Source: a virus (Duplodnaviria > Heunggongvirae > Uroviricota > Caudoviricetes). Taken from it: 64,000 nucleotides of DNA. Below the pieces are notes generated by a model. That model saw only the letters and a program-made list of their open reading frames with translations, was not told the DNA's origin and searched no databases. Location of the stretch: the IMG/VR virus record IMGVR_UViG_3300042879_003909, positions 79,772-143,771 of that record, one strand, 5' to 3'. A program made the translations under genes and the position numbers. Shown here piece by piece: positions 21,100-43,570 of this stretch. Position 1 is the first letter of the stretch. Every line of letters begins with the position of its first letter.

Positions 21100-22221
21100 C
21101 TAAATTTGACAAACTTTATCTACAATAAAACCATCTTTGCTATCTGAAGGTTTTCCAATAAGTATCACAGTATTTCCTTCGTATAGCATTTTTTTATACT
21201 GATCATAAGAATCTGGAAAAACAATAACGGAATCTAAAATAGCACTATGGTCTGAAACAGACAAGAATGCCATTTTTTTACCCTTATTCTTTCCCTCTTT
21301 CTTAATAACATACTCTCTCAATCCATTAATAGTAACACCAAGGTTAGCCGGGCCTTTAACAATTCCCTGATAAATTTCCTTACATTCTGCATTGATTATA
21401 TCAGTATCACCCATATCGCTAGCTGCACATGTCATCGGAATGCCCATATAGTATTCTTCTTTCTCTGCTATCCAAGAAGCGTGATCATTTAGATCTGTTG
21501 GAGGATTATCAAGTAGCTTTTTTATGCCCATTAGTATGTCTAATCTCGGTTTATTAACTTTAAAATTATGTATCAAAACGTTAATATGGTGAGATAAAGA
21601 TTCTGTATACTCAACATTATTCTTAATAAAATCTACCTCTCTTTGCGTGAGTTTTTTCCATGCATCATACTCAAATAACATCCTGTTTCTAGAAACAGTG
21701 TTTAGTTTATTATTAAAAATACCACACGATATCATGGCTATAAAAGCCCGCTTATTTATTTTATTAGCAAAATTACATAGTACCGATATCCAATCTAGCT
21801 CTTTAATAGTATTAGGCAGTAGAGACAATATTTTCTCTGATTCGGACTCGCCAATATCTTTCACTAAAGAAATACCAAAATAGATTTTATCTTTATGTAT
21901 AGTAAAATCTTTATATAAATTACCAAGCCTCGGTGGCAATACATCTACATTATGTATCTTGCTATCATATATCAAGCCCCGAATTTCTTCTTGAGTATCG
22001 GGCTTACGTCTAGCATGATTTAAATAAACTTCATAGAACTTGTGAATACTTTTTGCCTTACATAAAGCGCTCCAATAAGCGTTGAGTCCATAAGATACAG
22101 AATGTGAATTAGATACAGCTATGCCATCACCATAAAATATATGGTCTTCTGATCGCACCTCTATATCCATAGTTGGAATTATTCCTATTTTATTACATCT
22201 AATAATTTTTGCAGTATGCAT
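21100..22221 (-). CDS. dnaE: DNA polymerase III alpha subunit, C-terminal fragment, beginning with a 38-aa C-intein
   Basis: Begins MHTAKIIRCNKIGIIPTMDIEVRSEDHIFYGDGIAVSN / SHSVSYGLNAYWSALCKAKS, i.e. a C-intein (..HNF..GI.VSN) followed by the conserved DnaE (FNK)SHSxAY..YQTAWLK region; the rest resembles DnaE C-terminal/OB domains. Confidence 0.75.
   Translation of the reverse strand: MHTAKIIRCNKIGIIPTMDIEVRSEDHIFYGDGIAVSNSHSVSYGLNAYWSALCKAKSIHKFYEVYLNHARRKPDTQEEIRGLIYDSKIHNVDVLPPRLGNLYKDFTIHKDKIYFGISLVKDIGESESEKILSLLPNTIKELDWISVLCNFANKINKRAFIAMISCGIFNNKLNTVSRNRMLFEYDAWKKLTQREVDFIKNNVEYTESLSHHINVLIHNFKVNKPRLDILMGIKKLLDNPPTDLNDHASWIAEKEEYYMGIPMTCAASDMGDTDIINAECKEIYQGIVKGPANLGVTINGLREYVIKKEGKNKGKKMAFLSVSDHSAILDSVIVFPDSYDQYKKMLYEGNTVILIGKPSDSKDGFIVDKVCQI
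22108..22221 (-). mobile_element. split intein, C-terminal half (Int-C) of the fractured dnaE
   Basis: 38 codons ending ..GIAVSN with a +1 Ser; pairs with the N-intein at 23105-23389. Confidence 0.7.
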
Positions 22222-23072
22222 TCAATATCTCCTAGAATGTCTGATTCCCAAAATCTTATCAATTTTATATTATTATTTTTACAAAATTTATTTTTCTTAA
22301 TATCTCTAATGGCATTTCTTTTTTGCGTAGATGTTTTCGGTCCATCTTTGTATATCTTGGGATTACTGTGCCAATAATCTCCATCTATTTCTATACATAT
22401 ATTATAGTCAATGAGATAAAAATCAAAAGACCAATATTCGATTCTTTTTTCTTGTTCGTAGTTTATGTTATTGGCTTCTAATAAATCTTTAAATTTTCGA
22501 CATGGTAAAGTATCATTTTGTTTAAAAATGCCTTCTTTGATTAATCTTAATGTATTCTCTCTTAATTTCTGTTTAGTTTCTTCGGTATGTTTATGTCCAG
22601 TATGTCCATGTACAGATCTTTTTTTAGCTGACTCGCTTTGTTTTTGTTTAGTTTCTACTGACGGCTTTCTACCTATGGCTTTATCTGATATTCTTTTCAT
22701 TAAGTCAGAATTTTCTTTATTCAATCCGTTGTTCCAAGGTATTTTTCCAAACATCGGATTATTGCTTCCGACCCTATTGGTTTTTGCTTCTTGTGACCAT
22801 TTTTTTACACCTTCATTTAAACCACATGCTATCTTTTTATATCTAATATTAGAGCCATCTAATATGACCGTTAGTTTTTTATTGCACGCACCGCAAGGAC
22901 AGCTTGGGCCATATCCAAAATAGTCTGTTAAGGATAACTCATGACATTCTTCTATATGCTTTTTAAAACATTGAGATTTATAAACCCCTGTCCCTCCATA
23001 TTGTTTTACCATTTCTGATAAAGAATAATTACATATTTTACAAAACTCCCATTCTTTCTTTTCTATAATCAT
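22185..23072 (-). CDS. free-standing homing-endonuclease-like protein between the dnaE halves (zinc finger + NUMOD-like repeat + DUF559/Vsr-like endonuclease domain)
   Basis: CKICN...CFKKHIEECH zinc finger; GHTGHKHTEETKQKLRENT (NUMOD3-like GxxHSEETKxKIS); C-terminal DFYLIDYNICIEIDGDYWHSNP...IKLIRFWE (DUF559-type). It lies exactly between the Int-N and Int-C ends. Confidence 0.6.
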   Translation of the reverse strand: MIIEKKEWEFCKICNYSLSEMVKQYGGTGVYKSQCFKKHIEECHELSLTDYFGYGPSCPCGACNKKLTVILDGSNIRYKKIACGLNEGVKKWSQEAKTNRVGSNNPMFGKIPWNNGLNKENSDLMKRISDKAIGRKPSVETKQKQSESAKKRSVHGHTGHKHTEETKQKLRENTLRLIKEGIFKQNDTLPCRKFKDLLEANNINYEQEKRIEYWSFDFYLIDYNICIEIDGDYWHSNPKIYKDGPKTSTQKRNAIRDIKKNKFCKNNNIKLIRFWESDILGDIECILQKLLDVIK

Positions 23073-23101
23073 TAGTATGCCTCCTGTTAATAAAACCCAT
23101 A

Positions 23102-25786
23102 CTAATTATTATACACAATAATTTCATAACCTTGGTCTAAAATTTCATACAATGGCCGTGTTATAAAATCAGAGCATAGAAATTTATGATCTAGGGTACA
23201 TTTAATACTATGGCCCGAATCTGTTTCTATTTCATATACTTCTTTTTCGCCATTATGTATTATGTCTATTACTTCAACATAATGATCTTGTCCATTTTTA
23301 TTTGGTGCTAATATCATATCTCCTAGATTTAATTCGCACAACATCTTAATTTCATCTTTAGTATTAACCGTTGTCGTCGGGTCCAAGCATCGATTAAACG
23401 AATATCTGTTTGATGCTTCAATCCATTCAAAGATTTGTTCTGCCTCTTCTTTAGTTACAATGCCCTTTTTTTCAGCACCTTCAATAAAAGATATTTTAAC
23501 TTTAGCCATAAGATCAGCAAGTTTTTTACCCATAGCTTTACGCAAGTTATCGGCTTCTTGCTCTGTAAATCCAGCTATTTCTCTAGCTATCATCATACTT
23601 TGTTCTTGATAAACTAAAACGCCGTAAGTATCTTTCAGAATAGGCTCTAGGGCCGGATGAAAATACTTTACCTCATCCTTACCAGACTTGCGATCAATAT
23701 AGTGTTGTGTCATAGACTTGCCTTCAAAATAGGCATTCAGTGTGCCCGGCCTAATTAAAGCTACAAGGGCCGATCCTTCTTCCAGCATATGTGGCTGTAA
23801 TTTTTTAGTCCATGTTTTACCAAGCTGTGACTCAAGCTGAAAAACTCCTCTTGTATCGCCTTCGCACAATAATCTCCAAGTCTCTACGTCTTCCCAGTTG
23901 TCCAAGTCTATATTGGCATACTTAGCTATTTTATCAATCTTGCTTAAAATATCAACACCAAGAATATCAAACTTTACCTGACCAATAGATTCAAGATCGC
24001 CCATTTCAAAACCGGCTACCGGATTGCCTTCACTGTCGCGTACCATCGGACAAATATCCGCTAATGGAGAAGCGGCAATAATAATACCGGCAGCATGCTT
24101 GCCCTGCGATTTGTAGGTGCCTTCAACCTTAATTGCTTTTTCAAAAACATCTGCTAGATCGCCAATTAGTTTACCGTCTACTAAAGAGCACCACTTCTCT
24201 AATTTTTTAGGATTATTAATAAGCGCCCATCTAATAATAGACTTATCTTCCATTTCTTCTAATTCGTCAGAGATTTCAGCCTCGTCTGGAATATACTTTG
24301 TTATTTCATTCATTTCAGTAAATGAAACGATATCTTCTACTCTTAATACTTCCTTGACTGCTGATCTGCCCTGAAGTCTACCAAATGTAGCCATTTGAGA
24401 AACATTTTCATGTCCATATGTTTGTTTGATATATTCGATAACTTCGTCTCTATGTTCGGCTGGAACATCTACGTCAATGTCCGGCAAGCTACCCTTTCTA
24501 GAGCTATTATAAAATCTAGAGAACAAAAGCTTAAACGGAATAGGATCAATAGAAGTAATACCAACTAAATAAGATATTAAACAGCCAGCAGCACTTCCAC
24601 GGCCCGGGCCCGGTAGCCAGCCTTGTTTTCTTACCCAGTTGACAATATCTTGAACAATTAGAAAATAGCCAGATAGTCCAGCGTCTTTAATAATTTCCAA
24701 TTCTTCTTTGATTCTGTTTTCATATATGCTTTTAGATTCTTGTGTAGAGACTTTACCCTTTTTCACCAGTAGTTCTTGCCATCCTTTACGGCAAAGATGT
24801 TTTAAATATTCAAACTCGCTCATTCCATCGGGACAACTAAAATGCGGCAAAATAGGACTATTTAGAATGTTATATTCTTCGCACTTATCAACAATCTTTC
24901 CAGCATTATCTATCTCTTCCTGTGTATGCAAAGCTAATATTTCGCCCGGCGAAGGTATGTGATAATTGTCTGAAATAAAAAATCCTTTCAGTGGGACCTT
25001 TTCTTTCTTTTGTATCGCCCTGTTGATTTGTGGCATAGTCTTTTTTAACGCAGAACACAATAGAATTCTTTGATATACTGCGTCCGACTTATCTACATAA
25101 TGACTATCCGCAGTAGCTACAGTTTGAATATTATACTCGGCTGCTATTTCTCTCAAGCATTGGCCTATTACTTTTGCTGCATGTAGAACTTCTTGATCTA
25201 TTAGCTGAATCTCTAGATAAAAATCATTTCCAAAGATTTCTTGATGCAGCTTTATAACCTCATAACAAGACTCTTTCCAGTCTGGCCTTAAATAAGCCCG
25301 GGCTTCTTCATATGATTCTGCATCAAAAACATTATTAGAAAAGAATAAAGATTCAGATATAGCCGTGCCCGGATGACCACTAATGCAAATATGATTTCCA
25401 TTGCCAAGATTTTTCTTCATGATTGAATAGTCAATACGTGGCTTATAATAAAAATTATCTGGGTGATAACTTTCTGAAACACAGCGAATTAATTCCTTCC
25501 ATCCTTGTAGGTTTTTAGCTAATATAACAACGTGATTTAAGCCTTTATTTTCGGATGATCTATCTTTGGCATCTTTGCTTATATAAAACTCGCAACCCAG
25601 AATGGGTTTAATCCCACCCTTTTTACACTCGGAAAAAAAGTCTACGCAGCCAGATATGGAGCCATGATCGGTCAAAGCACAAGCCTTGTATCCATACTCT
25701 TTACATCGCTTGACCATGTCTTTTGGCTTACTATAACCGTCTAATAACGACAAGTGACTGTGGTTATGGAGAGACGCCCAATTCAT
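23102..25786 (-). CDS. dnaE: DNA polymerase III alpha subunit, N-terminal fragment (PHP + polymerase core), ending in a 95-aa N-intein
   Basis: PHP domain MNWASLHNHSHLSLLDGYSKPKD...ALTDHGSISG; polymerase core; the ORF terminates with ..ASNRYSFNR / CLDPTTTVNTKDE...TLDHKFL...EIIVYNN*, i.e. Hint blocks A (C-LD-T) and B (TLDH) with a stop after the N-intein. Confidence 0.85.
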   Translation of the reverse strand: MNWASLHNHSHLSLLDGYSKPKDMVKRCKEYGYKACALTDHGSISGCVDFFSECKKGGIKPILGCEFYISKDAKDRSSENKGLNHVVILAKNLQGWKELIRCVSESYHPDNFYYKPRIDYSIMKKNLGNGNHICISGHPGTAISESLFFSNNVFDAESYEEARAYLRPDWKESCYEVIKLHQEIFGNDFYLEIQLIDQEVLHAAKVIGQCLREIAAEYNIQTVATADSHYVDKSDAVYQRILLCSALKKTMPQINRAIQKKEKVPLKGFFISDNYHIPSPGEILALHTQEEIDNAGKIVDKCEEYNILNSPILPHFSCPDGMSEFEYLKHLCRKGWQELLVKKGKVSTQESKSIYENRIKEELEIIKDAGLSGYFLIVQDIVNWVRKQGWLPGPGRGSAAGCLISYLVGITSIDPIPFKLLFSRFYNSSRKGSLPDIDVDVPAEHRDEVIEYIKQTYGHENVSQMATFGRLQGRSAVKEVLRVEDIVSFTEMNEITKYIPDEAEISDELEEMEDKSIIRWALINNPKKLEKWCSLVDGKLIGDLADVFEKAIKVEGTYKSQGKHAAGIIIAASPLADICPMVRDSEGNPVAGFEMGDLESIGQVKFDILGVDILSKIDKIAKYANIDLDNWEDVETWRLLCEGDTRGVFQLESQLGKTWTKKLQPHMLEEGSALVALIRPGTLNAYFEGKSMTQHYIDRKSGKDEVKYFHPALEPILKDTYGVLVYQEQSMMIAREIAGFTEQEADNLRKAMGKKLADLMAKVKISFIEGAEKKGIVTKEEAEQIFEWIEASNRYSFNRCLDPTTTVNTKDEIKMLCELNLGDMILAPNKNGQDHYVEVIDIIHNGEKEVYEIETDSGHSIKCTLDHKFLCSDFITRPLYEILDQGYEIIVYNN
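23105..23389 (-). mobile_element. split intein, N-terminal half (Int-N) of the fractured dnaE
   Basis: 95 codons starting at Cys1 (CLDPTT) and containing the block-B TLDHKF motif; the gene stops immediately after it. Confidence 0.75.
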
Positions 25787-38108: not shown

Positions 38109-38462
38109 TCAATCTCCTTCTACTATCCATTTTTGCTTTTGTTCTGGTGTCATTTTATTAATTTTACGCATTAAGTCTTTTTTATCTTTTGCTTCTTTAG
38201 AAATAATTTTATTATCTTTTCTCATTTTTTCTTCTAGGCCATATTTGCCTAGCTTTTTAGTATTTGCTTCGGCAAGCTGTCCTATAGTTTTAATTTCTTT
38301 GACTGTTGCGTGAATGCTATCTAATGAATATTCTCTATTAACTTTTTTGCTTTTACATTGATGACATTTAACTTTTTTCATATTATCATCATACTCTTGA
38401 ACTCGCCAAAACTCTACAGATATAGAGTTACACTTTTCACATTTAAAATTATACTCAGGCAT
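38109..38462 (-). CDS. FmdB-like zinc-ribbon protein
   Basis: N-terminal YNFKCEKCNS...KCHQCKS (CxxC-x~20-CxxC). Confidence 0.4.
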   Translation of the reverse strand: MPEYNFKCEKCNSISVEFWRVQEYDDNMKKVKCHQCKSKKVNREYSLDSIHATVKEIKTIGQLAEANTKKLGKYGLEEKMRKDNKIISKEAKDKKDLMRKINKMTPEQKQKWIVEGD

Positions 38463-40206
38463 CTTTTAACCTACTTAAAATTTTTGGAATCAAGCCGTTT
38501 CTGACAACATCGGTGCCATCTAATTCACAAATGGCTACCTTATCTAAATTATGTAATCTAGAAATAAATTTATCTAATCCGCCCTTAGTGTATTCTGGTA
38601 AATCACTTTGGTCAGTATCGCCATTGATAATAGCTTTTGAGTTCATGCCAATTCTAGTAATAAACATTTTTATTTGTTCAAAAGTGCAATTTTGGGCTTC
38701 GTCAAGAATCATAAAAGCATTATGGAAGTTTCTACCTCGCATGTATTCTAGTGGACAAATTTCTATTATATTGGTTGCTTTGAGATGCATCAAGGCTTCG
38801 CCTAGATATTGTTTCATTTCTTCAAGGATAGGAATCATGTACGGATTAATTTTTTCTAACATAGTGCCGGGCAAAAAGCCTAAGCCTTTTCCTGACTCAA
38901 TTACTGGTCTAGTAATAATAACTTTAGATACATCATTTCTCATTAACGCTTCGCAGGCTAATCCAGTAGCAATTGCGGTGTTATGCGTTTGAACAAATCC
39001 GTCTGTTAAATATAAATGACTATTAGAATCTATTAAAATACACTGACATTCTTTTTCTGATATTTTTTCTATTGAATCTATGTATCTTTTTAGAAAATAT
39101 TTTTCTCTTACTAATAAATTTTCTCTTTTTCTGCTTAGCTTAAATGGCACTAAGTTATTATTAAATCTTATAAAAACCCTATAGTTTTCTTTAGTTATTA
39201 TTTTTTCATTATTTTTTGTGTAATGTCCCATTCTTGCACTAATTTTTGCAAAACCGCCTAAAGATTGAACGATAGTTTGAACATCTAGTGCTAGCTGGTA
39301 AGAAGCCGTAGAAAATTCTATTGTACTGCTTCCACAATATCCATCTGTATCTAGCAAGCCAGACAATATTTCAGTTCTAACCTGTTTAGAGTTATAAATA
39401 TATTCTTTTGGTATAAATTTATTATAAGAAAGCTTATTTAAAATACCAAGTCTTTCTAGTTCTGGTTTTAAAACTAAATATCCTCCTGTAATATTATAGT
39501 CACAATTATTTTGTTTGGAGAGAGAACAAGATATTTCATTTAGTACAGGCGTAAGTAAATCTATCATTTCTTTATCATTTGTGCTAAACCTAAGCATTTG
39601 TTGGCTTAATCCGCCGTCACCAATCAAGCATCCTAGCAAGTATGGATCGATATTAACTTCCTGATGATCAAAATCAACTGCTTCTATAGCGGGCAGATAG
39701 TATTTCCTTTTGCCGGATTTTCTTTTATAAGAATTAATAATTTTTTCTAAGGGCAATGTTTTTGGAGCTTTCCAATTTTCACTACATAATGTCCATAAAT
39801 GCTCTTTACAGCATTCTACAGTTTGTCCATCTGAAAATGTTATTAAATAAACATCTTTTTTGCCTTGCGGAAAAACATTTAGTACTTTAGCTCTTTTACC
39901 ATCTTCAGTAAGAACATATGAGCCTATTTTTACATCGCCCATCGCTATTGGGCCACTAGGAGTCCATATTGTAGAATCAAGCGGCTGCGCCTTGCCGCTA
40001 CCGGCCGGGCCAATACATAAAGTAACATCGTTTTCTACAACGCTTCTAATATAATCAGCCTGATTTTTAGTTTTTGGAACTAAAGTTTTTCTTTCTTGTC
40101 TTGGGGGATCTTTCTTTGGCGTATTATCTTGTCTCTTTTTTTTCATAAGATATCCCTTAATATGATTCAGATGTTTGCGCGAATAACGCCGGATTAAGAG
40201 ATGCAT
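38455..40206 (-). CDS. phoH: PhoH-like ATPase interrupted by a 337-aa LAGLIDADG intein inserted in the Walker-A P-loop
   Basis: Exteins CIGPAGSGK / TAIATGLACEALMRNDVSKVIITRP align with PhoH GPAGTGKTYLAvAaAvdAL...RiVLTRP, followed by the DEAQN and GD..Q PhoH core. The insert runs from AQPLDSTIW to LTDGFVQTHN|T and contains LLGCLIGDGG and LSGLLDTDGY LAGLIDADG motifs. Probable start is Met21 (MKKKRQ). Confidence 0.85.
   Translation of the reverse strand: MHLLIRRYSRKHLNHIKGYLMKKKRQDNTPKKDPPRQERKTLVPKTKNQADYIRSVVENDVTLCIGPAGSGKAQPLDSTIWTPSGPIAMGDVKIGSYVLTEDGKRAKVLNVFPQGKKDVYLITFSDGQTVECCKEHLWTLCSENWKAPKTLPLEKIINSYKRKSGKRKYYLPAIEAVDFDHQEVNIDPYLLGCLIGDGGLSQQMLRFSTNDKEMIDLLTPVLNEISCSLSKQNNCDYNITGGYLVLKPELERLGILNKLSYNKFIPKEYIYNSKQVRTEILSGLLDTDGYCGSSTIEFSTASYQLALDVQTIVQSLGGFAKISARMGHYTKNNEKIITKENYRVFIRFNNNLVPFKLSRKRENLLVREKYFLKRYIDSIEKISEKECQCILIDSNSHLYLTDGFVQTHNTAIATGLACEALMRNDVSKVIITRPVIESGKGLGFLPGTMLEKINPYMIPILEEMKQYLGEALMHLKATNIIEICPLEYMRGRNFHNAFMILDEAQNCTFEQIKMFITRIGMNSKAIINGDTDQSDLPEYTKGGLDKFISRLHNLDKVAICELDGTDVVRNGLIPKILSRLKDA
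38980..39990 (-). mobile_element. intein (Ala1-type, with a double-motif LAGLIDADG homing endonuclease) within phoH
   Basis: Block A A-QPLDST (Ala in place of Cys1); block B GQTVECCKEHLW; two LAGLIDADG motifs; C-terminal block G VQTHN followed by +1 Thr, which is the Thr of the GKT P-loop. Confidence 0.75.
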
Positions 40207-41362: not shown

Positions 41363-43570
41363 TTAAAATAGATCGCATTTTCCGCCGCCACAGGCTATTT
41401 CTTCCTGAAGTTTTGTATTGTCCTTTTCCTCTTGTAGGAGAGTATAGTCAACCTCAACATATTCTCTTTGAAGCTCTGTCCACAGCTTATAGTTATACAC
41501 ATCTTTCATGGCATGGGTTAGTTTCTTGATATCTCCCTCAAAGTATTTGACTGCATATTTATTGCATCTTTTGATCCAGTCTGTTTTTGCCGTACCTCTG
41601 CTTCTTGATCCGTTTCCTAGTAATGCTGAGCATGCTTCCCATAGATTATCTTCCCAGAGTGTTAGTGCTGTTTCGATAAGGCCGCTAACAAATACCACTC
41701 CATCGCCGTAATGAGATAGCATCTCGCTAGGTAGATATATGGTAGTAAAAGGAGCTTGTGGGTAGTCTTTATCGCCGGTCGATGCCAATAGACTAATTCC
41801 GCAGAAAAATTCTCTATTTTCATAAATAAAATCTTCAACCTGCACCCATTCGCTGGGCTTAATATTGATCGTATTACTCACATTATGATTTAGCCAAGGC
41901 TGCGTACATAAATCTTTATTTAATCCAGACATGACCCAATTCTTTTGTGTTGACTTAACAATTTCTAATAAATTGATAGCACTAGTCTGATTTTTTGTCT
42001 TTGATCCATCCGGAACCTCTACACAAAAACTAATTACATCATCCGTATCATTTGCCGACCAAACCGATCTTTCGCAAGCTCTTGGATTCATTGTACTAAA
42101 ATATTTATATACATTTTCCATTTTATTAGCCTGAACTCTTCTGATATATCTTTTGGCATGGTGCGGATGGATGCCGCTAGCAGTACCTAAAACACATGAA
42201 GATGAACCTTCTGGTTTAACGCATGTAGTTCTAGCCGCTGGATTAATATTTATTAGTTTTGATATTTGATTGTTTGTTTCTTTTACTACCTCTGCTCCCT
42301 TTTGCTGTACTGTGGGGTCTAGGCAAACTTCAGGGTTTTCTAGCCATCCAGTGCCACTAACGCCTAATAGGGCCTCTCTAGCAAAGATTCTCTCTGATAC
42401 TTCGCCCAAATAAGGAAAGCTTGTGAAACCAGCTTGTAAAGTTCCGATTATTGCAGCAGCCTTACATGCCTCATAAAAGTCTTCTTCGGTTTTTACTTTG
42501 GCACAATTAATGGTTGATAAATTACAACCCTGCCAGCCAGAAATTCCAGTTTTTTCATCCACTGGCCACATGCCAATTTCCACACAGGGATTCACAATTA
42601 ATTCAGTCGAATCAGACCATACAAAGCCCGGTTCTCCAAATTCTTTTACGGATTTCATCAATTCTGCAAACTGTTCTTTTGTTGTAGAATCCCGCAATAG
42701 CAATGCTGAATTATTGGATCGGCCTCTTTGCGGATTATCCGTAAACCAATTACCTGTTTTTGCTTTAGCCATTTCTGCGTCATCGGGCGAAAAAACACAA
42801 ATCGTAGCGGACCTTCTCACGCCACCCGAGATAACAGCATCAGAAGCATGCATGATAATATCATATGCCTCAATAGGCTTTATTTTTCTTAAATCATCTG
42901 AACAAAATTCTGTCCGGCTAATTGAATTGTCTAGAATTTTTTTAATATTTTTTAGAGCCTTTTTTAGTGGCTCTGGGCCGGGCGCTTTGCCGACCCCGCC
43001 AGCTACGGGCGATCCAGCGGGTCTAATTTGCGTGTAATCAAAAGTTACATTATATCCCACATACTCTGCAAAAAGCTCGTCCTGATCAAAATACGAGGCA
43101 ACTAAGACGCCTACCGCATCTGACCATCCTTCGATACTATCCTCGATAACAAATTTCTTATTCTTCTCTGGCGCAACTGAAATAAGGGCCGGAAGTTTAT
43201 CTATGTGATGTTTCTGTACTGAGAACCCAGTACCACAACCACACAGCAATAAATACATACATTCTTGAAAGAATCTTAATCGGTCTACATATGAGCTAAC
43301 ACAATTATAAATCCGGGCATGCTTGTTTAAAATAGGCTCTCCGCCAAATTGGAGCGCTCTTTGGCTTCCTAATACCTTCTTCTTATACATCATATCATAC
43401 GCCCAGTCTATTTGGTCGTGTAGTTCTTGAGATGCATTGCTGTACTTCGTATGCATCATGCTTCTGACACGATCATTTGCCTCTTTCCATGTTTCTCTTC
43501 TTTTCTTTTCTGGCAAATACCTTGCATATTTTGAAGTAAAGGTATAGTCCTGTAGCGATTTCAAACTCAT
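41363..43570 (-). CDS. ribonucleotide reductase catalytic subunit (probably class II, monomeric NrdJ-like)
   Basis: 735-aa ORF with the active-site region VNPCVEIG (NPCGE-type) and Cys pairs (LLCGCGTGF); AGGAG RBS 6 nt upstream; no small-subunit gene adjacent; class assignment is an inference from length and the absence of nrdB. Confidence 0.7.
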   Translation of the reverse strand: MSLKSLQDYTFTSKYARYLPEKKRRETWKEANDRVRSMMHTKYSNASQELHDQIDWAYDMMYKKKVLGSQRALQFGGEPILNKHARIYNCVSSYVDRLRFFQECMYLLLCGCGTGFSVQKHHIDKLPALISVAPEKNKKFVIEDSIEGWSDAVGVLVASYFDQDELFAEYVGYNVTFDYTQIRPAGSPVAGGVGKAPGPEPLKKALKNIKKILDNSISRTEFCSDDLRKIKPIEAYDIIMHASDAVISGGVRRSATICVFSPDDAEMAKAKTGNWFTDNPQRGRSNNSALLLRDSTTKEQFAELMKSVKEFGEPGFVWSDSTELIVNPCVEIGMWPVDEKTGISGWQGCNLSTINCAKVKTEEDFYEACKAAAIIGTLQAGFTSFPYLGEVSERIFAREALLGVSGTGWLENPEVCLDPTVQQKGAEVVKETNNQISKLININPAARTTCVKPEGSSSCVLGTASGIHPHHAKRYIRRVQANKMENVYKYFSTMNPRACERSVWSANDTDDVISFCVEVPDGSKTKNQTSAINLLEIVKSTQKNWVMSGLNKDLCTQPWLNHNVSNTINIKPSEWVQVEDFIYENREFFCGISLLASTGDKDYPQAPFTTIYLPSEMLSHYGDGVVFVSGLIETALTLWEDNLWEACSALLGNGSRSRGTAKTDWIKRCNKYAVKYFEGDIKKLTHAMKDVYNYKLWTELQREYVEVDYTLLQEEKDNTKLQEEIACGGGKCDLF

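Follow-up and report, generated by a model that had tools for sequence, protein, structure and literature searches.

An intein within the phoH gene

The window analysed in this study, which is the whole 64,000-nucleotide stretch of DNA from a Caudoviricetes virus, carries on its minus strand a phoH gene that is interrupted in frame by a 1011-nt insert. The features of the gene and its insert are collected in Table 1. The longest open reading frame called mechanically at this locus (38455..40206, minus strand) reaches a farther upstream ATG at position 40206. The true start of phoH is probably the ATG at 40146, which is preceded by a Shine-Dalgarno-like motif (AAGGGA) and lies 10 nt past the stop codon (40157-40159) of the upstream gene. 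A homologous intein-bearing precursor, P0001, is 562 aa in length. No annotation was returned by a PHROGs search for either immediate neighbour (a 395-aa upstream gene and a 117-aa downstream gene).

Table 1. Features of the interrupted phoH gene, ordered along the minus strand. Residue numbers refer to the intein unless the extein or precursor is named.
Feature	Position	Strand	Basis
phoH precursor coding sequence, 563 aa + stop	38455..40146	minus	ORF list; Pfam PhoH and LAGLIDADG_3
N-extein, residues 1-52, ending ...LCIGPAGSGK (Walker A through the invariant Lys)	39991..40146	minus	alignment to PDB 3B85 PhoH and intein-free relatives
Class 3 intein, 337 aa, Ala1-Asn337: HINT splicing domain with embedded LAGLIDADG homing endonuclease	38980..39990	minus	translation, PDB sequence matches, relatives, AlphaFold, Foldseek
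Ala1 codon (GCG), non-nucleophilic first residue	39988..39990	minus	Ala in 110/116 relatives
Block B, GQTVECCKEHLWTL: Cys60 and Cys61 (B:6, B:7), His64 (B:10), Trp66 (B:12)	39787..39828	minus	aligned to Trp of Msm DnaBi1 (6BS8) and gp41-1_WCT (6RIZ)
Trp66 codon, W of the WCT triplet	39793-39795	minus	
First LAGLIDADG motif, LLGCLIGDGG, acidic Asp125	39610..39639	minus	weak I-DmoI alignment, intein residues 113-142; helix in model
Second LAGLIDADG motif, LSGLLDTDGY, acidic Asp216	39337..39366	minus	Pfam LAGLIDADG_3, E = 2.5e-12, intein residues 205-274
Block F, ECQCILIDSNSHLYLT: Cys315 (F:2), Cys317 (F:4), His325 (F:13)	39004..39051	minus	aligned to Msm DnaBi1 catalytic Cys118 region and gp41-1_WCT D107C position
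Cys317 codon, putative initiating nucleophile	39040-39042	minus	
Block G, GFVQTHN: Thr335 (G:5, T of WCT), His336, Asn337 (cyclising)	38980..39000	minus	
Thr+1 codon (ACC), putative C-extein nucleophile; Walker A GKT Thr once spliced	38977..38979	minus	
C-extein, 174 aa, beginning TAIATGLACEAL... and running to the PhoH end	38458..38979	minus	Pfam PhoH, precursor residues 387-558
phoH stop codon	38455-38457	minus	

The insert separates Lys52 from the Thr that completes the Walker A motif GPAGSGK/T (the slash marks the insertion point), and its translation reads AQPLDSTIW...GFVQTHN before this Thr. Pfam matches the precursor to PhoH in two separate stretches and to LAGLIDADG_3 (6e-12). When the exteins are joined, the resulting 226-aa protein yields a single unbroken match to the PhoH family (PF02562; 1.3e-67, profile positions 3-202 of 205), Walker A motif included, and aligns with PDB 3B85 (5e-51) free of gaps at GPAGSGKT. 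Precise removal of the insert thus restores a conserved host protein. The NCBIfam model PRK10536 gives only a partial match that falls under its cut-off.

An earlier note, made from the letters of this DNA, had proposed that phoH is split at this point inside the Walker A loop by a 337-aa element, with the P-loop Thr as the +1 residue. The coordinates, the translation and the gap-free alignment of the spliced protein all bear this out, and each of the motifs it listed is present in the translation (the Ala-first block A AQPLDSTIW, block B GQTVECCKEHLW, LLGCLIGDGG, LSGLLDTDGY and VQTHN/T).

Precisely these 1011 nt are missing from syntenic relatives. Aligning the exteins with intein-free phoH genes, as had been proposed, leaves the boundary unambiguous. 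Four of the five closest PhoH relatives read GPAGSGKTAIAT at the insertion site, and P0123 reads GPAGSGKSCIAT. Given the GPAGSGKTAIAT reading of the intein-free relatives, no neighbouring Cys or Ser can serve as the true residue 1. A start at Ser(-3) was considered and rejected, as it would remove the P-loop G-K that intein-free alleles keep. Note that the boundaries were set by a junction-anchored comparison of intein-plus and intein-minus alleles, and that a global MAFFT alignment of the DNA put the gap of 1011 nt wrongly at the start of the gene.

Identification of the insert as an intein

The generic Pfam models Hint and Intein_splicing did not match the HINT domain of the insert, for which only Hom_end_hint was reported (E = 0.035), and therefore searches by PDB sequence and by fold were required. 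Among sequences of solved structures, the insert matches the gp41-1 intein (1.2e-12) and the class 3 intein Msm DnaBi1 (1.1e-7). It is also matched by NCBIfam models for intein-containing proteins, and its database relatives number 338, with E values down to 8e-192. At the level of sequence, a chance resemblance to inteins is excluded.

Blocks A, B, F and G occur in order (AQPLDS..., ...CKEHLW, ...CQCILID...H..., ...THN/T), and the insert terminates in His-Asn followed by Thr. The earlier note had held that a nearby Cys or Ser start, or a lack of blocks F and G, would count against an intein, and neither was found. A HINT fold is evident in the predicted structure (AlphaFold pLDDT 96, pTM 0.93). 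Foldseek places the whole model closest to TliVMA, PI-SceI and PI-PfuI (E = 2e-17 to 1e-11), with probability 1.00 to solved inteins, and places the HINT part closest to the class 3 DnaB1 inteins of Mch and Msm (target TM-score 0.74-0.80).

Splicing residues and class assignment

Conservation was assessed in 121 sequences, with denominators of 115 to 121 depending on the position. The residue aligned with His64 is His in all 121 sequences, and that aligned with Trp66 is Trp in 120 of them. In block F, the position of Cys317 is Cys in 117 of 117 relatives, and the three block G residues are nearly as constant (Thr 115/116, His 116/116, Asn 115/116). The +1 residue is Thr in 107 and Ser in 8 of 115 relatives, and the full combination of Ala, Trp, Cys, Thr and a +1 Thr or Ser is carried by 104 of the 121 sequences.

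The element therefore exhibits the attributes by which class 3 inteins are defined and their blocks numbered (PMC2807308), namely a non-nucleophilic residue 1, the Trp-Cys-Thr (WCT) triplet at B:12, F:4 and G:5, and Ser or Thr at +1. Its WCT positions are in register with those of crystallised class 3 inteins (6BS8, 6RIZ). A search for the class 3 triplet and an internal block F Cys had been suggested beforehand, and Trp66, Cys317 and Thr335 are its outcome.

Given that the triplet is invariant in the family and that the +1 residue is Thr rather than Cys, the first nucleophile is likely to be the internal Cys317, unlike the +1 attack of KlbA-type inteins. This nucleophilic role of the block F Cys has been established for Cys320 of the MP-Be DnaB intein (PMC2807308). 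However, grafting a WCT triplet onto gp41-1 was insufficient for class 3 splicing (Beyer et al., PMC7664689), and therefore the triplet by itself is no proof of mechanism.

The endonuclease domain and its distribution among relatives

The element carries two helices that each end in a catalytic acidic residue, as expected for a LAGLIDADG protein. The search with LAGLIDADG profiles that the earlier note called for returned the LAGLIDADG_3 match given in Table 1. The position of Asp125 is Asp or Glu in 119 of 121 relatives, and that of Asp216 is Asp in 119 of 121. By fold, this domain matches I-DmoI, I-Tsp061I and PI-SceI.

All five of the closest PhoH relatives (83-88% amino acid identity, 225-226 aa) are intein-free. 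Two of these five, L002 and L011, were checked for gene order, and both keep that of the window in the absence of the insert (class II RNR, a 389-397-aa gene, phoH and a 116-117-aa gene). The empty site in L011 reads TTATGTATTGGGCCAGCCGGTAGTGGCAAG/ACGGCCATTGCAACTGGATTAGCTTGCGAA, and L002 is a GKS-C variant. In the nearest alleles that carry an intein (P0001-P0003), the intein is 73-82% identical to that of the window and the exteins are 71-75% identical, the latter being lower than the extein identity of intein-free alleles. In the comparison with P0001, the intein is 82.5% and the extein 71.7% identical in amino acid sequence. This incongruence between intein and extein identity comes from a handful of sequences. 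The presence or absence of the intein among syntenic relatives, together with an intein identity that exceeds extein identity, fits recent mobility.

Proposed mechanism and alternative explanations

On the basis of these characteristics, we judge with a probability of roughly 0.87 that the element is a class 3 intein, mobile and equipped with a double-motif LAGLIDADG homing endonuclease, and that it interrupts a phage phoH gene at the Walker A loop. From homology we infer splicing, a branched intermediate on Cys317 and cleavage by the endonuclease, as follows. The 563-aa precursor would form no P-loop, because GPAGSGK and T sit 337 residues apart. The thiol of Cys317 would attack the Lys52-Ala1 bond, which the block B residues His64 and Trp66 would activate, to yield a thioester branched intermediate on block F. 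A transesterification would then move the N-extein to the hydroxyl of Thr+1, after which cyclisation of Asn337, aided by His336, would free the intein. Finally, an O-to-N acyl shift would create a native Lys-Thr bond, restoring GPAGSGKT in a PhoH protein of 226 aa. The endonuclease of the freed intein is predicted to cut the P-loop codons of intein-less phoH genes in co-infecting related phages, and repair would copy the intein. Such homing would account for the patchy distribution of the intein among otherwise syntenic relatives.

This scheme requires some revision of the earlier view, which described the mechanism as class-3-like or KlbA-like and had the C-extein nucleophile attacking without a Cys1 thioester. 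Only the class 3 part of that description is retained, on account of the WCT triplet and Thr+1. The wording on the attack fits class 2 better, and Thr+1 would act only in the second step, on the Cys317 thioester.

Loss of cleavage activity is frequent in LAGLIDADG inteins, and an intein that splices while its endonuclease is inactive would be a fixed passenger inherited only vertically. We regard this as unlikely for the phoH intein, since both acidic residues of the LAGLIDADG motifs are present and conserved, and since the intein is unevenly distributed among close relatives with a syntenic locus and is more similar to that of P0001 than the exteins are.

A more elaborate reading goes beyond a selfish passenger and treats the element as a conditional intein, i.e. 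a redox- or zinc-gated switch on PhoH. Cys60, Cys61, Cys315 and Cys317 would form a cluster around the active site that traps the precursor through a disulfide or zinc, a bridge to Cys317 holding the P-loop split until the infected cell becomes reducing or metal-poor. Position B:7 is usually occupied by the Thr of TXXH. Among the relatives, Cys is found at B:6 in 103/121, at B:7 in 94/121, at F:2 in 62/117 and at F:4 in 117/117 sequences. There is also precedent in the class 3 intein Msm DnaBi1, for which a Cys48-Cys118 disulfide and zinc act as reversible inhibitors (PMC6195587, PMC7360933), but the Cys48 partner is not conserved in the phoH intein, where the aligned residue is Asp. This proposal is purely inferential and we consider it quite doubtful. 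It adds to the best explanation rather than replacing it. If it were true, the phage would gain conditional control of its auxiliary gene phoH.

Selfish elements decay frequently, and an intein pseudogene is known from Arthrobacter FB24 (Arth_1007), which gives some precedent for viewing the element as a non-splicing remnant in a dead copy of phoH. This is very improbable in light of a frame that is intact across 563 codons, a family consensus residue at every catalytic position of both domains, a confidently folded model, and exteins in which every PhoH motif is retained and whose identity to intein-free alleles is 83-88%. Least credible of all is a class 2 (KlbA-type) intein, with which the element has Ala1 in common. 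The members of class 2 lack a WCT triplet and carry Cys+1 together with an Asp at F:4 (PMC2807308), whereas the phoH intein has Thr+1, a Cys at F:4 in 117 of 117 relatives and a complete triplet. Its nearest solved HINT domains are those of gp41-1 and of class 3 DnaB inteins rather than that of KlbA.

Comparison with known inteins

The class 3 prototype, MP-Be DnaB of mycobacteriophage Bethlehem (Tori et al. 2010, PMC2807308), is likewise phage-borne, begins with a non-nucleophilic residue, has an embedded endonuclease, resides in a P-loop NTPase and is of similar size (341 versus 337 aa). By the residue numbers given in PMC2807308, its His65, Trp67, Cys320, Thr339, His340, Asn341 and Thr+1 correspond to His64, Trp66, Cys317, Thr335, His336, Asn337 and Thr+1 of the phoH intein. 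The two differ in host (a DnaB-like helicase versus PhoH), in residue 1 (Pro versus Ala), in the -1 residue (Gln versus Lys) and at B:7 (Ser versus Cys). As a separate observation, the DnaB-like gp61 in the Bethlehem RefSeq record is only 273 aa, and gp51 of that record is a phosphoesterase with a different, class 1 intein.

The DnaB1 inteins of Mycobacterium smegmatis and M. chimaera (6BS8, 6RIX, 6RIY) are also class 3 and occupy a Walker A P-loop site at which the +1 residue, Ser or Thr, is the splicing nucleophile and also belongs to the P-loop, although they are bacterial mini-inteins in DnaB that have lost the endonuclease. Host family and splicing class are both shared with the PhoH inteins of M. 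fortuitum and M. xenopi (OBK00716, EID13626; Kelley et al. 2018, PMC6195587, Fig. 6a), which are bacterial and of the WCT class. Bacterial PhoH inteins numbered 21 in the count of Novikova et al. (2016, PMC4760082).

From a cultured phage, Vibrio phage 1.161.O._10N.261.48.C5, protein AUR91592.1 contains a homologous LAGLIDADG intein at an identical GSGK/AQPL...THN/T site of a PhoH-type ATPase, with the motifs EDHLW, KCILID and VVTHN/T. It differs in that the host is an 815-aa PIN-PhoH (PhoH2-type) fusion and in that identity is only ~35%, and it is annotated only as 'hedgehog/hint domain protein'.

The class 2 KlbA intein of Methanococcus jannaschii shares Ala1 and operates without an N-terminal thioester, but its +1 residue is a Cys that attacks the N-terminal junction directly, its F:4 residue is Asp, and it lacks the WCT triplet (PMC2807308). 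PI-SceI, TliVMA and PI-PfuI, the best whole-model fold matches (query TM-score 0.6-0.75), share the two-domain architecture, and several reside in ATPase P-loops. They differ from the phoH intein in being class 1 (Cys1 nucleophile), in having an additional DNA-recognition region, and in sequence (12-17% identity).

Distribution and significance

Homologous inteins are found in 824 of 50,697 deposited phage records, including that of the Vibrio phage PIN-PhoH protein, which has an intein at the same site. PhoH proteins host 91 of the best 120 relatives, at two insertion sites. Across the family the sites are GK/T or GK/S of PhoH, DnaA-like, RecA, Snf2 and terminase proteins, as well as a second PhoH site, RGR/T. 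Class 3 inteins at the P-loop K/T site have been known since 2009. Most such inteins are located in ATPase P-loops (PMC2807308), and in a recent survey (bioRxiv 10.1101/2025.01.02.630785) the family accounts for 287 of 784 inteins from actinobacteriophages. The original description of this kind of intein as uncommon is consequently correct relative to all inteins but not within phages. Class 3 PhoH inteins have already been reported from mycobacteria (PMC6195587). PhoH inteins are known from bacteria, but the literature searched contains no description of one from a phage. The phoH intein is an ordinary further case of a described class 3 type that is common in phages.

In the deposited phage collection, a blastn query with the gene yielded nothing beyond short fragments of PhoH or of inteins (69-73%), and a megablast query of 24 kb had no hits. 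By these nucleotide comparisons, the phage is without a close deposited relative. A search for related loci with a single protein found only three loci, in metagenome-assembled bacterial genomes, one of them with an intein-bearing PhoH, which is uninformative regarding the host.

The phoH intein leaves the present understanding of intein mechanisms unchanged. It does provide a clean and apparently intact class 3 intein with an endonuclease, along with a large metagenomic family of relatives, and the catalogue of intein hosts gains phage PhoH. Metagenomic phoH genes appear to harbour many class 3 inteins, a large and undescribed reservoir, at two sites, GK/T and RGR/T. Given that phoH is a marker gene in wide use for phage diversity, a 1-kb insert in its P-loop codons is relevant to gene calling, to length filters and to the design of primers. 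Class 3 inteins whose +1 residue is Thr also have some use as orthogonal tools for protein engineering. Finally, the phoH alleles that carry or lack the intein in syntenic relatives constitute a natural system for the study of homing among uncultured phages.

An intein interrupts the Walker A motif of PhoH

The minus-strand ORF that an earlier note assigned to phoH is present as described and probably begins at ATG 40146, which lies 10 nt past the stop of an upstream gene for a 395-aa protein and is preceded by AAGGGA. Translation from this ATG yields 563 aa, and the closest homologue has 562 aa. The insert (AQPLDSTIW...DGFVQTHN) comes directly after ...LCIGPAGSGK and directly before TAIATGLACEAL, and all of the motifs quoted in the earlier note are found. 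Pfam detects PhoH in two stretches of the precursor with a LAGLIDADG_3 domain in the middle, and NCBIfam models of intein-containing proteins (DnaB PRK07773, GyrA_w_intein, Tes intein and V-ATPase A) match the insert. Removal of the 337 residues leaves a 226-aa protein that covers Pfam PhoH positions 3-202 of 205 (E = 1.3e-67) and matches the solved PhoH 3B85 (E = 5e-51) with GPAGSGKT free of gaps.

A search with this spliced sequence retrieved 7,933 PhoH relatives, and the five closest (P0121-P0125; 83-88% identity, 225-226 aa) show no interruption. Four of them have the P-loop GPAGSGKTAIAT, and P0123 has GPAGSGKSCIAT. A nearby Cys or Ser start for the intein is incompatible with these alleles and is ruled out, and thus the proposed Ala1 boundary stands. 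The intein is slightly richer in AT (GC 0.309, vs 0.354 for the phoH exteins and 0.341 for the whole window), a gap too small to indicate origin.

Features in the window (a slash, here and in the text, marks an intein junction or site)
Feature	Position	Strand	Details
phoH ORF	38455..40206	-	
phoH intein	38980..39990	-	337 residues
Second PhoH site	38755..38775		empty; YMRGRNFHNAF
dnaE, three adjacent ORFs	21100..25786	-	Pol III alpha
dnaE N part + split-intein N fragment	23102..25786	-	894 aa; Pfam Hint E = 2e-7
Free-standing NUMOD3 + DUF559/Vsr-like endonuclease	22185..23072	-	295 aa
Split-intein C fragment + rest of DnaE (HHH, OB domains)	21100..22221	-	373 aa
Class II ribonucleotide reductase	41363..43570	-	
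Ribonucleotide reductase intein site	~43290..43310		empty; ARIYN/CVSSYVDRLRFF

Fold and endonuclease domain

By sequence, the HINT part is related to the cyanophage-like gp41-1 intein (1.2e-12) and, at 1e-7 to 6e-6, to class 3 inteins found in DnaB of M. smegmatis and M. chimaera, and I-DmoI matches the middle part weakly. A highly confident AlphaFold model built from an alignment of 64 sequences (pLDDT 96, pTM 0.93) was compared with the PDB by Foldseek. The whole model retrieves the two-domain intein-endonucleases TliVMA (2e-17), PI-SceI (4e-15) and PI-PfuI (1e-11), while the splicing domain retrieves gp41-1 and class 3 DnaB1 inteins (target TM-score 0.74-0.80). Blocks F and G are present, in agreement with the original identification of the insert as an intein. 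The acidic residue is retained in each LAGLIDADG motif, as Asp125 (Asp or Glu in 119 of 121 family members) and Asp216 (Asp in 119 of 121).

Splicing class

Class 3 inteins, as defined by Tori et al., combine a non-nucleophilic residue 1 with Ser or Thr at +1 and a co-varying WCT triplet of Trp at block B:12, Cys at F:4 and Thr at G:5, and most are located in the ATPase P-loops of proteins of the helicase-like and terminase kinds (PMC2807308). The key residues of the phoH intein are Ala1, His64, Trp66, Cys317, Thr335, His336, Asn337 and Thr+1, a numbering that nearly matches that of the class 3 prototype (His65, Trp67, Cys320, Thr339-Asn341). When the window intein is aligned with its 120 best relatives, conservation is nearly complete for Trp (120/121), Cys (117/117), Thr (115/116), Ala1 (110/116) and Thr or Ser at +1 (115/115), and 104 sequences carry the entire A-W-C-T-(T/S) combination. 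In the HMMER alignments, Trp66 and Cys317 coincide with the Trp and catalytic Cys of 6BS8, and also with the engineered F65W and D107C of gp41-1_WCT (PDB 6RIZ).

The earlier note had offered a class-3-like or KlbA-like mechanism, and only the former agrees with Ala1, the WCT triplet and Thr+1. A class 2 (KlbA) intein lacks the WCT triplet and needs Cys+1 as well as Asp at F:4; given that the phoH intein departs from this pattern, we infer a class 3 pathway from its sequence. Cys317 would attack the Lys52-Ala1 bond, the N-extein would be passed to Thr+1, Asn337 would cyclise, and an O-to-N shift would restore GKT. Transplanting the WCT triplet into a class 1 intein does not suffice for class 3 splicing (PMC7664689).

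Additional cysteines neighbouring the catalytic F:4 Cys are conserved in the subfamily at B:6 (103/121), B:7 (94/121) and F:2 (62/117). Because the class 3 intein Msm DnaBi1 is reversibly blocked by zinc and by disulfide bonding of its catalytic Cys (PMC6195587, PMC7360933), a role for these residues in conditional splicing is conceivable, although the disulfide partner of Msm DnaBi1 is not conserved in the phoH intein.

Insertion sites and mobility

Loci carrying the close intein-free phoH alleles are syntenic with the window and lack exactly the 1011 nt of the intein. Class II ribonucleotide reductase comes first in the shared arrangement, followed by a gene for 389-397 aa, phoH, a zinc-ribbon gene for 116-117 aa, genes of 70, 96, ~110 and 172 aa, and a RecA/UvsX-like gene. 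Locus L004, which carries the intein-bearing allele P0001, is likewise syntenic. Between the window and P0001, identity is 82.5% for the intein vs 71.7% for the exteins, and the window exteins are closer to the intein-free alleles (84-88%). The 11 nt directly 3' of the intein (ACCGCAATTGC) are the same in both intein-bearing alleles and show synonymous differences in the intein-free ones, which, in this small sample, would be consistent with co-conversion upon homing.

Of the 120 best-matching relatives of the intein, 91 reside in PhoH (~66 at GK/ and ~23 at a second site, RGR/T), and the remainder occupy GK/T or GK/S of other P-loop proteins, namely DnaA-like/'DarB-like', RecA, Snf2 and terminase. 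This distribution fits a homing element aimed at conserved nucleotide-binding codons. The second PhoH site follows a conserved MRGR motif and is occupied in P0017, P0023, P0027, P0032 and ~20 others; in the window, Asn replaces the Thr/Ser nucleophile. Of the 120 nearest PhoH alleles without an intein, two, P0123 (locus L002, 6001..6678) and P0128, have GPAGSGKS-CIAT in place of GKT-AIAT at the putative homing site; several nucleotides around the junction are changed, and these alleles might represent a target-site variant resisting the endonuclease.

Other inteins and genomic context

With a profile from the intein family, another Hint signal was detected in the window, at dnaE, which is 'fractured' into three adjacent ORFs. 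The N-terminal ORF ends ...NRYSFNR/CLDPTTTVNTKDEIK...TLDHKF...VYNN before its stop, its intein fragment beginning CLDPTTTV, and the C-terminal ORF opens with MHTAKIIRCNKIGIIPTMDIEVRSEDHIFYGDGIAVSN/SHS..., its intein fragment ending GIAVSN. Once joined, the two parts match gp41-1 as well as solved split inteins of DnaE (7QIL, 1e-7), and by its Cys1, Asp at F:4 and Ser+1 this split intein is assigned to class 1. The layout resembles the 'fractured gene' arrangement reportedly described by Dassa et al. in 2009. At locus L011 (1..2830), which is syntenic and has an intein-free phoH, the class II ribonucleotide reductase bears an intein (...VTGN/CTASYIDRLRFF) at a site where the window has none, and therefore the phage lineage is a mosaic of occupied and empty intein sites.

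The window is AT-rich (GC 34%), its ORFs of 100 aa or longer lie almost exclusively on the minus strand, and its GC skew is steadily negative. It encodes phage-type replication and nucleotide-metabolism proteins (Pol III alpha, a DnaB-like helicase, a UvsX/RecA-like protein and class II ribonucleotide reductase) as well as a glycosyltransferase; relatives encode a dUTPase. Megablast against 50,697 phage records gave no match to the window, which therefore represents an uncultured phage lineage.

Prevalence of related inteins

By tblastn, 824 of the 50,697 deposited phage records contain an intein homologue. Mycobacteriophages account for 295 of these, many others are phages of Salmonella, Vibrio and Klebsiella, and the host proteins are mostly helicases, primase-helicases and terminases. 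In the cultured Vibrio phage 1.161.O, a homologous intein occupies the identical position (GSGK/AQPL...THN/T) of a PIN-PhoH protein annotated solely as 'hedgehog/hint domain protein'. The K/T position in P-loops has been termed the 'classic' intein site (PMC5050341), the known bacterial intein hosts include PhoH in 21 cases (PMC4760082), and class 3 PhoH inteins have been shown for M. fortuitum and M. xenopi (PMC6195587). Class 3 accounts for 287 of 784 actinobacteriophage inteins, none with a PhoH host (bioRxiv 10.1101/2025.01.02.630785), and the phrase 'PhoH intein' was not found in the literature searched. Given the published K/T site, the bacterial PhoH inteins and the phage homologues, an intein of this kind is already known; the mildly new point is that phage phoH appears to be a frequent intein host gene.
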